In this document: piece after piece, positions 1 to 52,554 of the stretch
Layout: each line of letters opens with the position of its first letter
How positions within the stretch are numbered: the stretch's first letter is position 1
Source of the DNA: Candidatus Saccharimonadota bacterium
GTDB taxonomy: Bacteria > Patescibacteriota > Saccharimonadia > Saccharimonadales > JAXHMH01
NCBI GenBank assembly: GCA_034521515.1
Contig: JAXHMH010000002.1
Coordinates: 216,379-280,378 of the forward strand
Length of the DNA stretch: 64,000 nucleotides
Direction of reading: 5' to 3'
Made by a program: the position numbers and the translations under genes
The notes under the pieces: model-generated
Seen by the model: the letters and a program-made list of their open reading frames with translations, nothing else
Told to the model about the DNA's origin: nothing
The model's database searches: none

Positions 1-205
<205 letters not shown>

Positions 206-230
206 AAAATGTTGAGCTCACTGCGATACA

Positions 231-10705: not shown

Positions 10706-11134
10706 TTAGTCGTCAACCGGTTTTATCTCTTTGTTGTAGCGCTTCTTTAAGTAATCTGCTCGCACTTGATTCATCTGTTGGTTCTGTTTATATGGATCGT
10801 CTTTGGTGTGTTCAACAATCTCTTTTGCTTTATGAACCCATTCTTTTTCTATTAAGTCCACATCGTCAGCTATAGGAGGGGTTGATGGATCTGGTTGGTC
10901 ATTGGCTGCGCTATTATCATTATCGCTAGCAGGATTTGTATGATCTGACGTGGGCTGAACCTGCGTGCCTTGTTGAGGCTGAGAAGATGGGGTTTGAGTA
11001 GAGGTAGTCTCAACTGATTGAGACATTTTTTGCTCATTAGGGGTATTAATCTGCTCAGCTGAACTGTCAAATTCCCCAGTTTGTGGCTTTGGTAACTCTG
11101 TTTGTGGGTATGATTCCCCTTGTTGCTCATTCAT
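10706..11134 (-). CDS. Hypothetical protein (low-complexity N-terminal half, conserved-looking C-terminal ~50 aa)
   Basis: 142-aa ORF co-oriented with and 3 nt upstream of the ATPase gene. No motif recognised. Confidence 0.5.
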   Translation of the reverse strand: MNEQQGESYPQTELPKPQTGEFDSSAEQINTPNEQKMSQSVETTSTQTPSSQPQQGTQVQPTSDHTNPASDNDNSAANDQPDPSTPPIADDVDLIEKEWVHKAKEIVEHTKDDPYKQNQQMNQVRADYLKKRYNKEIKPVDD

Positions 11135-11167
11135 CTCTGTAATTATAACAAAGGAATTGAAAGTTCG

Positions 11168-11515
11168 TTACGATAGAAGGTCTGTTTTTTTAAAATAAAA
11201 CGTTAAACCACCGAGTAACCCGAGTGTTATTAACAAATCTCTTACAGAAAGTTGTCCGATAGATTGCAAAATCAAAAGCAAAACCGGCAAAATTGCAGAC
11301 ACAATCGCCAGCCACCCCCTGAACTGGCGCGAAATATTTGGAAACCAGCGATATAAAATACTGCTAAATATCTGGTAGACGATGAAAAACACAAGCAAAA
11401 ACGGCAGTATGAGCAATGGTAGTGGCACGTTATTTGGGTTTGAAAGGGTAATTATACCAAGTAGCATCACTACAGATCCGCCGAAGATTACGACTCGAAA
11501 TTTAGAATTTCGCAT
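11168..11515 (-). CDS. Small integral membrane protein (about 4 TM)
   Basis: 115-aa hydrophobic ORF, first gene of the co-oriented 11515->7691 set. Confidence 0.55.
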   Translation of the reverse strand: MRNSKFRVVIFGGSVVMLLGIITLSNPNNVPLPLLILPFLLVFFIVYQIFSSILYRWFPNISRQFRGWLAIVSAILPVLLLILQSIGQLSVRDLLITLGLLGGLTFYFKKTDLLS

Positions 11516-11540
11516 ATAGAAATAGTGTAGCCCAAGTCGA

Positions 11541-11721
11541 ACAAATAAAATAGCACCAACGTATTGTTGGTGCCGGAAATAAGCGTGGAGCTAGGACGGT
11601 AAAACCGCTCGTTAAAAATACTATTTAGCGCTTACCGTCCGTAGCATGACTGACCGCTCCCATTACGAGAGCGATATCGGCATTGTAGCCGTAGGAATGT
11701 AAGTTTTTGTTTTAACCTACT
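11541..11721 (-). ncRNA. Candidate ~180-nt structured leader or small RNA (unassigned family)
   Basis: Minus-strand promoter TTGACT (11756-11751)-N17-TAGATT (11733-11728). Hairpins CGCTCTC-gtaat-GGGAGCG (11655-11673) and GGACGGTAA...TTACCGTCC (11594-11640). Intrinsic terminator GCACCAAC-loop-GTTGGTGC + UAUUUUAUUU (11573-11541), 26 nt before the ATG at 11515. Confidence 0.35.
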
Positions 11722-12522
11722 GCATCGAATCTACTATTTTATGTACAAAAAGTCAAGCATTATTAGTAGTTGTATTTACAACTATACAGATATAAACTTA
11801 GTTATTATATAAAAATTTATATAATAATATTGTTGTTGTAATTACGTTATATATGAATAGATTTTAGTTACTCTGATGAAGTAATATAATTTTAAAGTTA
11901 TTGAATTTATCATTACTTAGGCTGCACATATCAGCTTTTAAAAATACATTTAACAATGCACTGTAGCGTATACATTATTAGTAGTTTTGCCTGTCAAATT
12001 ACCCAAAGTATGGCAACGTATAGCAACCAAACCCTCGATCTGTTCCGGCCTATTTAGGTCTCTTGCCTAGAATTAAGAAGTTATTGTTATGAGCACATTG
12101 CAGCTAAACTCGACTGTACCGCCCGTAATAAAACGTATTAATTAACAAACTAGCAACCTTAGAACCATAAATACCCTACAGTACCGTAATTTCCGTACCC
12201 TATATTAATAGCTAAACACGCAAAACCTAGCATATATAAAAAGCCCCAACGATAGTCGCCATTACGTATTAAAGCCGTGGGACGTTATGCGGGAACCGAT
12301 AACCTATCGTAGACAACCTCGATAGCGCAAAACGGTAATTTAAATCTATTATATTACTTAATTTAATCTGCCTTTGAACTGACCTGCCATAACGATTCGT
12401 CTTGCCCTATTTATATTTAGATTGAGCCCTAATGACCAATCAAAATAGGTCAAATACATCTTATTTTTTAATCATCGACGACGGGAAGTTATACACAAGC
12501 TAAAAAATAAACCGTAAACGTG

Positions 12523-12551
12523 TTGACAGGCTCGTTTATGGTGGCTAATAT
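12523..12551 (+). promoter_or_regulatory. Near-consensus sigma70-type promoter
   Basis: TTGACA (12523-28), 17-nt spacer, TAATAT (12546-51). Confidence 0.5.
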
Positions 12552-12557
12552 AAGGTC

Positions 12558-12709
12558 AGCACTTGAATAAAAAAAGTGCTCAAAAACAAAAACGCAATCT
12601 GTAACAACGGCTTCTCGCAAGCCGTTGTTCAATATAAAACCAAGACCACCCACAAAAAACTTAAAACCAAAAACATAAAGCAGTCCCGGTTTAACGGGAC
12701 TGCTTTTTT
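12558..12709 (+). ncRNA. Candidate ~150-nt small RNA or comM leader (unassigned family)
   Basis: Starts after the 12523 promoter. Hairpins AGCACT...AGTGCT and AACAACGGCTT-ctcgc-AAGCCGTTGTT, long A/C-rich single-stranded runs, and terminator GCAGTCCCG-gttta-CGGGACTGC + TTTTTT (12679-12709). Confidence 0.4.
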
Positions 12710-12743
12710 GTATATAATAGAATTAAGTAAACGAGGTGGGTGT

Positions 12744-14258
12744 ATGAGCGCAACGGTTCAAAGCATTGCGATAGCGGGTGACGATTGTCCGGTTATTGAT
12801 GTTGAGTGCAATATGTCTAATGGCTTGCCCAATTTGCTTATCGTCGGGTTTGCCAACAAGGCAGTTGAAGAAGCCCGTGAACGTGTCCGCAGCGCTTTTA
12901 GTAACTCTGACTTGGACATGCCAAAAAAACGAATAATTATCAATCTCGCGCCCGCCGATCTACCAAAAGAAAGCCCCAGCTTTGACGCAGCAATCGCCAC
13001 CTCAATTTTACTGGCAAGTGGTCAAGTCAAGCAGCGACCTCCACAAAAGACACTTATTATGGGTGAGCTGGGTCTGGATGGAAGCATACGTCCGGTGCGT
13101 GGAATTATTGGCGCTATAATAAGCGGGAAGAAAAAAGGCTTCACCACTTTTTATATACCAAAAAAGAACCAACGGCAGGCCGCACTCATACCTGACATCA
13201 CTGTTATCCCTGTTAACAGCCTCCGCGAAATATATCTCGATCTTACAAAAACCGTCCAGATTAGCCCTCTTATCCCGAAAGATTCGCACTATATCCATAA
13301 ACAACAGGAGAGCGCGACTGATTTTTGCCACGTTGTGGGACAAGCCCGAGCAAAGCGCGCTCTAGAGATTGCTGCAGCCGGCGCACATAACATCCTTCTT
13401 AATGGCCCTCCCGGCACCGGTAAGAGTATGCTTGCCAAAGCAATTCCTAGCATTCTTGCCCCCTTAGAGCTTGACGAAATTTTAGAAATCACTCATTTAC
13501 ATAGTCTTGCAACCAAACAGTTCGATAAAATACTTACCAACCGCCCCTTCCGATCACCTCATCATAGTGCCAGCGAAATAGCCATTATTGGCGGCGGTCA
13601 GAAGCCACGGCCAGGCGAAATTAGCCTCAGCCACCGAGGTGTGCTGTTTTTTGATGAATTTCCAGAGTTTGATCGCAATGTTATTGAAGCTTTGCGTCAA
13701 CCATTAGAAGACAAAACAATAACTGTGACTCGAGCTAAGGACAGCTTTACATTCCCGGCAGATTTTATACTCGTTGCTACTGCCAACCCTTGTCCTTGCG
13801 GCTATTACGGCACCGATAAAACTTGTAGCTGCATGCCTTCCCAAATTGTAAAATACCAGCGAAAACTCTCAGGGCCTATCATAGACAGAATCGACATGCA
13901 TATAGATGTTGAGGAGGTGCAACACGAACATCTACTCAAAGATGGACGAGAAGAAAACAGCCAAACTATTAGGCAACGTGTCATAAAAGCTCGTAGCGCG
14001 CAACAAAAACGATTCTCTAACCCATCTAAAACCAACTCAACCCTTACAAATCAGGAAATTAAGCGTCACGCTCAACTTGACACTACGGCAGAAAAGCTAC
14101 TAAATGACGCCGCCAAGCGACTAGATATATCACCTAGAAGCTATATGAGGCTTATAAAAGTGGCTCGAACCATTGCCGACCTTGACGATAGCAACAACGT
14201 AACCGTACCGCATATTAGCGAAGCCTTACAATATAGACGACAAACTACTCAATTATAG
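12744..14258 (+). CDS. comM: Mg-chelatase-like AAA+ ATPase, YifB/ComM family (start trimmed to ATG 12744)
   Basis: Lon-like N-terminal domain, Walker A GPPGTGKSM, ATANPCPCGYYG, C-terminal ChlI-type domain. GAGGTGG SD lies before ATG 12744. The track's upstream extension covers the candidate sRNA and its terminator. Confidence 0.85.
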   Translation: MSATVQSIAIAGDDCPVIDVECNMSNGLPNLLIVGFANKAVEEARERVRSAFSNSDLDMPKKRIIINLAPADLPKESPSFDAAIATSILLASGQVKQRPPQKTLIMGELGLDGSIRPVRGIIGAIISGKKKGFTTFYIPKKNQRQAALIPDITVIPVNSLREIYLDLTKTVQISPLIPKDSHYIHKQQESATDFCHVVGQARAKRALEIAAAGAHNILLNGPPGTGKSMLAKAIPSILAPLELDEILEITHLHSLATKQFDKILTNRPFRSPHHSASEIAIIGGGQKPRPGEISLSHRGVLFFDEFPEFDRNVIEALRQPLEDKTITVTRAKDSFTFPADFILVATANPCPCGYYGTDKTCSCMPSQIVKYQRKLSGPIIDRIDMHIDVEEVQHEHLLKDGREENSQTIRQRVIKARSAQQKRFSNPSKTNSTLTNQEIKRHAQLDTTAEKLLNDAAKRLDISPRSYMRLIKVARTIADLDDSNNVTVPHISEALQYRRQTTQL

Positions 14259-15548: not shown

Positions 15549-15649
15549 GTCAGCCCAGTAGTAGACTTTTGAGTTAGCGCGCTTTCGATGCAAACCTATT
15601 AGATTTCAGTTTTGCTGAAATCCTTCTCAAAAGCTCACTACTGGGTCAG
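15549..15649 (-). mobile_element. ~100-nt terminal-inverted-repeat hairpin element, copy 1 (MITE-like)
   Basis: GTCAG-CCCAGTAGTAGA...GCTCACTACTGGG-TCAG. The same termini are seen at 55974-56069. Flanked by TCAG/TCAG. Confidence 0.5.
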
Positions 15650-15675
15650 ATTATCTATAAGCCGGGTTCTGTTCA

Positions 15676-15742
15676 CCCCGCACCTTTTCGTGGCGACTTA
15701 TCAATCTGGTTGCAGACTGTTTCGCCCAGAAAAGGTGCGGGG
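15676..15742 (-). repeat. 66-67-nt hairpin module inside rnpB (P18 position)
   Basis: CCCCGCACC...CAGTCTG-CAAC-CAGATTG...GGTGCGGGG. Near-identical to 15915-15980. Confidence 0.75.
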
Positions 15743-15914
15743 GAGCCAATCATCTATCTAGCTCTAGGATTGTTCCTAGAATCGAGCGGATCTTATGATG
15801 CATCTTCGGCGGGGAACCGTATGAAGACACACCTCCTTGCAGCAGACAGGGTTTACCATTTTCCATCGTCACCGACAGGAACTGTGGGCTCTTACCCCAC
15901 TCGTTTCACCTTTA

Positions 15915-15980
15915 CCCCGCACCACTTCAAGGTGCTAAACAATCTGGTTGCAAACTGTATCGCCCTGAAGTGGTGCGGGG
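15915..15980 (-). repeat. 66-nt hairpin module inside rnpB (P8/P9 position)
   Basis: CCCCGCACC...CAGTTTG-CAAC-CAGATTG...GGTGCGGGG. Paralogue of 15676-15742. Confidence 0.75.
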
Positions 15981-16165
15981 TAGTTTCGTTTCTGTGGCAC
16001 TTTCCCTAGGGTTGCCCCCGGTCGCCGTTAGCGACTGTCTTCCCCTTCGCTGCCCGGACTTTCCTCCCCCTCACCAGCTTTCAGGAGAACAAGCCTTGGC
16101 TTGCTTCTGCCTGGAAAGTGGTGAGGGGGCGATCGGCCGATAGTCTGACCTTTTTATTATATCAT

Positions 16166-17261: not shown

Positions 17262-17311
17262 CCTCGCCTGAAATTTTGGCAATCAAGTGACCAAAATTTG
17301 GCGAGATTTTT
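17262..17311 (+). terminator. Long-stem intrinsic terminator after tRNA-Pro
   Basis: CCTCGCCTGAAATTTTGG...CCAAAATTTGGCGAG followed by ATTTTTGTTTTT. Confidence 0.6.
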
Positions 17312-17493: not shown

Positions 17494-17524
17494 ACGTCCA
17501 AATCTTGCTGTTTGGACGTTTTTC
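17494..17524 (+). terminator. Intrinsic terminator closing an unassigned structured region
   Basis: ACGTCCAAA-tcttgctg-TTTGGACGT + TTTTC. Confidence 0.5.
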
Positions 17525-17682
17525 TTATGAGCTGAGGCCAGTATGACAACCTGGTAGTAATCCCCAGGTGGGTACCCGCACGATGCCACCACGGTGACAC
17601 ACGAATATTGAGTTCCCTAATGATAAGTAATCAGATTATCATTTCGCTGGCGTTCTCAGCCGTAAGCTCCATTATAAATTAC

Positions 17683-51906: not shown

Positions 51907-52554
51907 ATGATGGCTACACCTCATCAATTTGAAGATCTTGTGGAAACTTTTGGTCGTGGCACGAAACTAGAGTTTCAAAAAGGTGAATTTATTATACGCC
52001 CAGGTGATACACCGCCGGGCGTTTTTTATATAGAATCAGGTCTGGTCAAAGCCTACGATATAACCAAATACGGCGAAGAAAACCTTCTTATTGTCAGAAA
52101 AGAAAAAGAGATATTCCCACTTATCTGGGCGATAACCGGCCAAGAAAGACGCATTATTTATGAAGCACTGGTGCCGACCGTACTAAGACGCTTAAGCCGA
52201 AAACAATTTCTGGAGCACCTCGAAACTTATCCAGAGGGATTACGGATAATTCTAGATATGACTATGGAAATGTACCGTATACATTCCGAACGGATCTTAA
52301 ACTTAGAGTATCGTTCCGTACGAGAACGACTAATTTCATTTATGCTCACTATGTCCAATCGTTTCGGCGAAAAAACAGACGGCGGTATAGTCATCAGAGT
52401 ACCTCTTCGCCGTCAAGATATTGCTAGTTCTATTAGTGCATCACGGGAATCTACCGGCAAAGAACTAACCCTACTGGAAAAACAAAAACTCATAAGCACC
52501 AAAGCTCTTTTTATCACCATACACGATAAGACTAAGCTACGTGAGTTCTTATAG
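51907..52554 (+). CDS. Crp/Fnr-family transcriptional regulator
   Basis: cNMP-binding beta-barrel (FIIRPGDTPPGVFYIESGLVKAY) and C-terminal HTH (RQDIASSISASRESTGKELTLLEKQKLI). Confidence 0.8.
   Translation: MMATPHQFEDLVETFGRGTKLEFQKGEFIIRPGDTPPGVFYIESGLVKAYDITKYGEENLLIVRKEKEIFPLIWAITGQERRIIYEALVPTVLRRLSRKQFLEHLETYPEGLRIILDMTMEMYRIHSERILNLEYRSVRERLISFMLTMSNRFGEKTDGGIVIRVPLRRQDIASSISASRESTGKELTLLEKQKLISTKALFITIHDKTKLREFL

Follow-up and report, generated by a model that had tools for sequence, protein, structure and literature searches.

CrcZ and CrcY of Pseudomonas are stand-alone genes with their own promoter and terminator, and they sequester Hfq/Crc on A-rich CA motifs (AAnAAnAA). CrcZ is about 400 nt long, carries six spaced motifs and is transcribed from a sigma-54/CbrB-dependent promoter. 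The class II small RNAs (ChiX, MgrR) are enterobacterial, Hfq-dependent and base-pairing, and combine an (ARN)n tract with a Rho-independent terminator ending in a U-tail. The L20 leader of the Firmicutes (RF00558) is a promoter-to-terminator RNA ahead of infC-rpmI-rplT, and BTnc060 of Bacteroides (RF04184) is made up of a hairpin, an A-rich unpaired stretch and a terminator. At the promoter level, the mioC and dnaA promoters of E. coli and the sda promoter of B. subtilis represent promoters with a single DnaA box.

Saccharibacteria (TM7) are very small and live attached to the cells of other bacteria; their genomes, like those of other Patescibacteria, measure about 1 Mb and encode hardly any recognisable regulators. 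The present analysis concerns a 64-kb stretch of a Saccharibacteria genome (hereafter referred to as the window), for which an original prediction had proposed a promoter-to-terminator unit encoding an RNA of about 150 nt immediately upstream of comM, acting either as an independent small RNA or as a terminator-based attenuator.

The small RNA resembles CrcZ/CrcY in having a gene to itself, with a promoter and a terminator, and possibly in its unpaired A-rich, C-punctuated motifs, here the invariant CAAAAACAAAAAC and about two AAAAC per spacer. A CrcZ-like decoy logic would be in keeping with the presence of the same motif in the 5' hairpin of a neighbouring conserved RNA, perhaps an mRNA leader. 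It differs, however, in its predicted length of about 150 nt, in having one invariant tract and in its sigma-70-like promoter, and no similarity to CrcZ was found in the Rfam scan; the resemblance is a speculation on function and implies neither homology nor membership. With the class II small RNAs it shares AAA-AAC-AAA-AAC, equivalent to four ARN triplets, upstream of a strong terminator and its U-tract, but no seed-target pair was found in the 64-kb window. Like the L20 leader, it is a promoter-to-terminator RNA ahead of infC-rpmI-rplT, directly so where comM is missing. However, the L20 model reaches 21.1 bits where the cut-off is 58.7, its alignment is limited to an A-rich stretch and the terminator, there is no antiterminator, and comM and a separate infC promoter intervene, so that neither the RNA model nor the gene order corresponds to an autoregulatory leader of the L20/ribosomal-protein type. 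BTnc060, the best Rfam match, has a comparable hairpin, A-rich unpaired stretch and terminator, yet a 112-position internal stretch of its 213-position model is represented by 9 nt here, and the small RNA is not a member. The upstream box recalls the single-DnaA-box promoters, since 131 of 153 copies have an exact TTATNCACA at a fixed distance ahead of the -35 element, but this box, a single one, lies about 65-73 nt upstream of the start site and does not overlap the promoter.

Against the 4227 models of Rfam 15, no gathering-level match was obtained in 11100-12900; the best sub-threshold scores were 33 bits for BTnc060 (cut-off 228.9), 23.7 for RefA9 (cut-off 49) and the L20 score given above, in agreement with the earlier statement that the element matched no known family. 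Full-text literature searches retrieved no described small RNA or comM leader from Saccharibacteria or Patescibacteria and no relevant report of Hfq, CsrA or ProQ-type proteins in Saccharibacteria, and, according to a transcriptome study of TM7x, the model strain, small RNAs have yet to be validated. As no Rfam 15 cut-off was reached and no description was found in the literature, the putative small RNA is considered to found an undescribed family of promoter-to-terminator bacterial small RNAs.

Methods

Species-representative genomes were scanned for ComM, which yielded 69 loci, 54 of them from Saccharibacteria (TM7) assemblies; ComM of the window shares 51-66% identity with these 54. Metagenome contigs were scanned for the small RNA with an exact pattern, which yielded at least 120 stretches. 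Estimates of linkage and distribution are biased, because every locus was reached either via comM or via the small RNA's own sequence. Full-length comparisons (alignment, folding and spacer) were performed on 52 homologues. An alignment of 84 sequences was fitted to a covariance model and agrees with an independent MAFFT alignment. Targets and paralogues of the small RNA were searched for in the 64-kb window, which corresponds to about 6% of a genome.

Results and discussion

Distribution of the predicted small RNA

The elements of the unit and of the adjoining comM gene in the window are as follows.

12486-12499, plus strand: conserved upstream box AAGTTATACACAAG, a candidate transcription-factor site
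12523-12551, plus strand: sigma-70-type promoter, -35 TTGACA (12523-12528), 17-nt spacer, -10 TAATAT (12546-12551)
12558-12709, plus strand: predicted small RNA of about 152 nt, with a predicted start (from promoter geometry) and a predicted 3' end (from the terminator U-tract)
12558-12580, plus strand: hairpin 1 at the 5' end, AGCACU(U) with (A)AGUGCU, A-rich loop
12580-12592, plus strand: single-stranded tract UCAAAAACAAAAA, 13 positions, near-invariant
12603-12629, plus strand: hairpin 2, 11-bp stem AACAACGGCUU/AAGCCGUUGUU, loop CUCGC (12614-12618)
12630-12674, plus strand: A/C-rich, G-poor, unstructured spacer, kept in composition and not in sequence
12677-12709, plus strand: intrinsic terminator, stem 12677-12706, loop GUUUAA, U6 at 12704-12709
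12691-12718, plus strand: promoter-like site for comM, TTAACG, 16-nt spacer, TATAAT; overlaps the terminator; 10 of 12 consensus positions
12733-14258, plus strand: ribosome-binding site GAGGUGG (12733-12739) and comM, ATG at 12744, stop at 14258, 504 aa

With 12400-12760 as the query, blastn gave matches directly upstream of comM in all 54 Saccharibacteria loci and none in the other bacteria fetched by the same ComM scan. The promoter, both hairpins, the A/C tract and the terminator recur with fixed spacing in each of the 54. The covariance model of the 5' domain scores the window copy at 99 bits (E = 6e-18), the sole copy in the 64 kb. It detects the element exactly once in each Saccharibacteria locus and gave no match in the comM loci of other bacteria from the same scan. 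Most of the metagenome matches listed are true copies (69-105 bits with the covariance model), so that, besides the 54 comM loci, where it occurs once per locus, the unit is present in at least about 100 metagenome contigs. Among the sequences sampled, the family is, as judged by these searches, restricted to Saccharibacteria. A phage or viral origin was also considered and rejected, as neither of the two pattern matches in viral contigs was backed by the covariance model.

Secondary structure and covariation

The common order in the homologues is box, promoter, about 6 nt, hairpin 1, the tract, 8-20 variable nt, hairpin 2, CCAU, spacer and terminator, and the predicted RNA measures 148-197 nt. 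The fold of 12558-12712 comprises three hairpins with A/C-rich unpaired stretches between them, at -47.5 kcal/mol compared with -21.7 +/- 3.2 for dinucleotide shuffles (z = -8.1), none of 200 shuffles being as stable. The two hairpins proposed ahead of the terminator, one of them of 11 bp, were recovered and lie at 12558-12580 and 12603-12629, and the A/C-rich tracts read as they had been quoted. The predicted terminator with its 9-bp GC-rich core and U6 was likewise recovered at 12677-12709, 34 nt before the comM ATG.

Conservation is concentrated in the first 78 nt or so, over which the window averages 84.5% identity to its relatives as against 60.5% for the comM coding DNA. RNAalifold on the 52 full-length sequences gave 25 pairs, 17 of them with compensatory changes. 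In the 84 model-aligned sequences, which cover both 5' hairpins, pairing is kept in 99.0% of cells, and changes on both sides were seen in 12 of 16 pairs; the pairing and covariation values of the 5' domain were reached by none of 500 column shuffles, and slid partner columns, used as a control, gave at most 4 compensatory pairs. Conservation and covariation upstream of comM, proposed at the outset as a check on the unit, thus came out in its favour, with the element conserved in 54 of 54 Saccharibacteria loci and its stems covarying.

Hairpin 1 shows compensatory changes in 3 of 5 modelled pairs, with 99.8% of cells paired; one locus (L013) carries a different, longer stem in its place. In the UCAAAAACAAAAA tract that follows, 9 of the 13 positions are invariant columns and 4 are at least 90% conserved (52 sequences), and its mean unpaired probability in ensemble folding of the 52 homologues is 0.91. 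Hairpin 2 has compensatory changes in 9 of 11 pairs, with 98.7% of cells paired (one broken cell in 572 in the 52-sequence RNAalifold alignment), while its loop is CUCGC in 51 of 52 sequences and CCCGC in L034, with 4 of 5 positions invariant and an unpaired probability of 1.00 across the 52 homologues. A longer helix around hairpin 2 was seen in some lineages (L007, L031, L032, L036, L046) and was left outside the consensus.

The spacer is constrained in a different manner. The 52 spacers, of 42-87 nt, average 52% A, 25% C, 16.5% U and 6% G against a background of 28/24/27/21 (A/C/U/G), with a mean unpaired probability of 0.81 in ensemble folding. AAAAC occurs 0-4 times per spacer (median 2), a modest 1.8-fold excess over shuffles that is inflated by shared ancestry. 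The terminator is found at the equivalent place in every homologue; the terminator scan gives it 12 pairs, with the GC-rich core formed by 12680-12688 and 12695-12703. All 8 of its modelled pairs show compensatory changes, and the pair probability is 0.96 in ensemble folding of the 52 homologues.

Promoter and upstream box

The promoter scan places the near-consensus TTGACA-17-TAATAT promoter at 12523-12551, where it had been predicted, with 10 of 12 consensus positions matched. Promoter-like matches in the region occur at the level expected by chance (10 found, 9.2 expected), and the case for the unit therefore rests on the comparison with relatives. Among the 52 loci whose upstream sequence is long enough, 51 have TTGAC at a distance of 56-58 nt from the A/C tract, and in L013, where hairpin 1 is longer, the distance is 65 nt; a TAAGAT/TAATAT -10 element follows at standard spacing. 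The combination of -35 and -10 elements at near-constant distance, followed by the terminator, is present in 52 of these 52 loci.

Conservation begins at 12486, ahead of the promoter, with a box that the original prediction had missed. Its core TTATACACA (12489-12497) agrees with the DnaA-box consensus TTATNCACA over the full 9-mer, and in relatives the box reads AAAGTTATRCACAGG, with TTGACA about 25-30 nt further on. In the 131 copies mentioned above, the distance from the exact 9-mer down to the -35 element is 28-40 nt (mode 38). The 1.33 Mb of Saccharibacteria DNA examined contain 161 matches to this 9-mer, of which these boxes make up 81%. The box is possibly a site for DnaA, as read from the consensus alone, or for another regulator. 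A replication origin in the 1.2-kb ORF-free gap was considered and rejected: exact DnaA boxes in the 64-kb window number 2 against 2.9 expected and form no cluster, one-mismatch boxes are not enriched (67 against 68.7 expected), and the GC skew shows no turn; the region of the upstream box is hence not an origin.

The conserved block could, in principle, be a DNA-level element, namely a palindromic protein site or part of an origin, or a 54-aa minus-strand ORF (12489-12653), with no RNA being made. Hairpin 2 is indeed a perfect 11-bp palindrome, the block is preceded by the DnaA-box consensus and by 250 bp at 20% GC, and the minus-strand ORF coincides with the conserved block. However, the stems vary by compensation while the loops stay fixed, which is the signature of an RNA and not of half-sites, and the exact DnaA boxes are as sparse as stated above, with neither cluster nor skew turn. 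Coding by the minus strand is excluded by indels of 1 and 2 nt within the most conserved block and by interruption of the frame (under 40 codons) in 17 of 52 loci. Explanations of this kind are very improbable. A 13-codon TTG ORF inside the RNA was also discarded, given the indels in the conserved block and the loss of its TTG in relatives reading CTGAAT.

Relationship to comM and infC

The 504-aa product starting at the ATG at 12744 matches the Pfam domains ChlI (3.5e-39), Mg_chelatase (2.8e-89) and Mg_chelatase_C (1.4e-29), and the ComM proteins of relatives align from its residue 1. The ORF list gives instead a 560-aa ORF from a GTG at 12576, which traverses the small RNA and adds 56 codons, an extension that had rightly been called spurious, as the alignment with relatives begins at residue 1 of the shorter product. 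Exact protein look-up found neither the 504-aa nor the 560-aa product on record. Automatic annotation of the window genome and its relatives is likely to over-extend comM by the same 56 codons.

In about 30 of 52 relatives a -10-like box (TACAAT, TATACT or TATAAT, often preceded by TG) ends 6-25 nt before the comM ATG, and together with the promoter-like site at 12691-12718 these boxes are suggestive of comM having its own promoter behind the terminator. Some expression of comM by read-through may nevertheless occur, because about 12 of the 52 loci have no recognisable comM promoter behind the terminator and because L040 and L065 have as little as 12-13 nt between terminator and ATG.

As a separate observation, the -10-like box ends 6-10 nt before the comM start codon in L005, L007, L010, L013, L032-L035 and others, and a -10-like box lies likewise 6-10 nt before the start codon of a 115-aa ORF (window 11516-11551) behind a second RNA on the other side of the gap. 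The sequences suggest that the mRNAs of comM and of the 115-aa ORF are leaderless or nearly so, each directly behind a promoter-to-terminator RNA on its side of the gap. A possible anti-Shine-Dalgarno pairing of CACCCAC in the spacer with GUGGGUG at the comM ribosome-binding site was noticed in the window; it was unseen in the few relatives read by eye and was treated as a chance occurrence.

Among the 120 metagenome matches listed, comM lies downstream in 68, the contig is cut off in 15, and 37 have room for comM and lack it. Of these 37, 21 are true copies, and in 17 of the 21, again among the matches listed, infC-rplT follows directly; one locus (L084) retains a comM remnant. These 21 true copies without comM downstream demonstrate that the small RNA is kept when comM is lost. 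Its anatomy, conservation, covariation and independence from comM are established. In the comM-less metagenome contigs L080 and L084, TGGTGGAGCTGCGGGG stands immediately behind the small RNA terminator; to the eye it resembles a tRNA-like 3' end (...GCTCCACCA) in reverse complement, a possible sign of a convergent tmRNA gene.

The foregoing bears on the proposal that the RNA is a cis-acting leader or attenuator of comM, or of a comM-infC-rpmI-rplT operon, with regulated read-through of the terminator by a protein antiterminator, Rho loading or an L20/IF3-type mechanism. The RNA is always on the same strand and directly upstream of comM or infC, the gap is only 12-13 nt in the two loci named above, about 12 of 52 loci show no detectable promoter behind the terminator, the unstructured spacer with 25% C and 6% G resembles a Rho-loading site, and there is a weak match of 21 bits to L20_leader. 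Against this, no fold alternative to the terminator exists in any of the 52 homologues: the 5' arm of the terminator pairs with upstream sequence at a mean probability of 0.002 (maximum 0.023), so that there is no antiterminator, and a spacer with so little G cannot form one. The downstream gene varies by lineage between comM and infC while the RNA remains unchanged. Where loci were read by eye, a separate TTGACC...TAnAAT promoter precedes infC. A -10-like box is found 6-14 nt ahead of the ATG in many comM genes, and the L20_leader score is far under its cut-off and spans only the A-rich stretch and the terminator. A riboswitch or attenuator would be expected to show a fold competing with the terminator, which is found in none of the 52 homologues, and an obligate linkage to one gene, which fails in the 21 true copies without comM, 17 of them before infC-rplT. 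The attenuator arm of the original prediction is for the most part contradicted by the comM-less copies, the lack of an antiterminator and the -10-like boxes of many comM genes, and a cis-acting leader of any of these types is considered unlikely.

The other arm of that prediction, an independent small RNA, fits the conserved promoter and terminator, the covariation, the single copy per locus and the retention without comM. Conserved transcription signals of its own and a covarying structure are among the features of an independent small RNA gene, and the reading preferred here is that of an independent, trans-acting small RNA gene and not a comM leader, with a probability of roughly 0.6.

Probable mode of action

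Under the reading of an independent, trans-acting small RNA, transcription would start at about 12558 from the near-consensus promoter, preceded by the upstream box as a possible site for DnaA or another regulator, and would be ended at about 12709 by a strong, unconditional intrinsic terminator. The transcript would comprise a constrained 5' domain, with the 5'-end hairpin, the unpaired UCAAAAACAAAAA tract and the 11-bp hairpin with its CUCGC loop, and a second part consisting of an A/C-rich, G-poor tail of 42-87 nt, unfolded as far as the terminator. Protection of the two RNA ends probably falls to the 5' hairpin and the terminator. Acting in trans, the RNA would then serve as a decoy or a scaffold for a conserved protein, which would be bound by the unpaired A/C tract and the loop. 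In this model, contact with a partner, probably a protein, is likely to be made by the tract and the loop; the protein-binding mode as such is put forward tentatively.

Base-pairing in trans, with the UCAAAAACAAAAA tract or the CUCGC loop as the seed for U/G-rich or GCGAG sites in mRNAs, was weighed as the other way in which such an RNA may act. The invariant segments are predicted to be single-stranded, and base-pairing small RNAs typically combine a 5' hairpin with an accessible seed and a terminator, the layout shown here. However, complements are not enriched in the 64-kb window, being 9 for the tract against 5.3 expected and 15 for the loop against 17.5 expected, and the only exact complements there are on the small RNA's own antisense strand. 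Moreover, 13 consecutive near-constant positions across about 130 sequences exceed what a seed usually needs, and the neighbouring RNA repeats the motif itself and not its complement. Base-pairing is accordingly rated a rather doubtful mode, below protein binding.

A second conserved RNA and the shared motif

The ORF-free gap upstream of the small RNA holds another conserved element.

11545-11721, minus strand: second conserved structured RNA, promoter-like TTGACT-17-TAGATT at 11756-11728, terminator at 11574-11552

It is divergent from the small RNA, lies in the same gap about 800 nt away and adjoins, on their upstream side, minus-strand genes of 115, 142 and 1003 aa, the last being VirB4/HerA-like. 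It carries AAAACAAAAA in the loop of a 5' hairpin, an invariant GAGCGGUCAGUC and a long helix GGACGGUAAGCGCU...AGCGGNUUUACCGUCC, and 7 of its 19 pairs covary across 34 loci; no Rfam match was obtained at E <= 10. This RNA may be the leader of a type IV secretion operon or another small RNA. As regards the gap itself, the ORF-free part between the 115-aa minus-strand ORF and the small RNA promoter (11520-12485) is about 1 kb long and measures about 800-1100 nt in most of the relatives L001-L068; at 11700-11950 its GC content is about 20% over 250 bp, and the mid-gap sequence is not conserved.

The 10-mer AAAACAAAAA occurs 4 times in the window against 0.74 expected. In the 1.33 Mb of Saccharibacteria DNA it is found 313 times. 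The small RNA accounts for 159 of these, a figure due in part to the choice of loci, and the second RNA for at least 98, which makes at least 257 for the two together. Two further sites in the window were set aside, one at 17307 on the minus strand, which is not conserved in relatives, and one at 52479, which is inside a coding ORF. As the motif is shared and not complementary, its presence in both RNAs suggests a common reader, most simply a protein.

In the most extended version of this idea, the two RNAs would form a module between the type IV secretion operon and comM, in which the small RNA serves as a decoy for the protein reading AAAACAAAAA and is tuned by DnaA via TTATRCACA, coupling replication to DNA transfer and uptake. 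Such a module is a long shot.

Other features of the window

A third conserved non-coding block is situated on the minus strand at 17495-17660 (17541-17644 with 74-85% identity in about 7 loci) and is followed by a terminator-like hairpin. Its similarity to 6S RNA is weak and sub-threshold (19.8 bits, cut-off 46.4, E = 0.07), and it may be a divergent 6S RNA gene. A class A RNase P RNA (235.9 bits) lies at 15642-16148 on the minus strand and must hold sizeable insertions, since it measures 507 nt against a model of 367 positions. The 5' end of a 16S rRNA gene is at the window edge (1-207, minus strand). In many relatives the contig stops about 10-15 kb away from comM, as would be expected if assemblies break at the rRNA operon.

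Conclusion

The 5' domain of the small RNA is far better conserved than comM across soil, water and host-associated lineages, from which it probably has a central role. The comparison also corrects a likely annotation error in comM, namely its 56-codon N-terminal extension, and flags a second, unclassified conserved RNA next door. If the two-RNA module were true, it would link the replication status with the DNA-transfer and DNA-uptake machinery in host-dependent bacteria. Saccharibacteria are now transformable, and a small and well-defined RNA offers a direct entry to post-transcriptional control in these bacteria.
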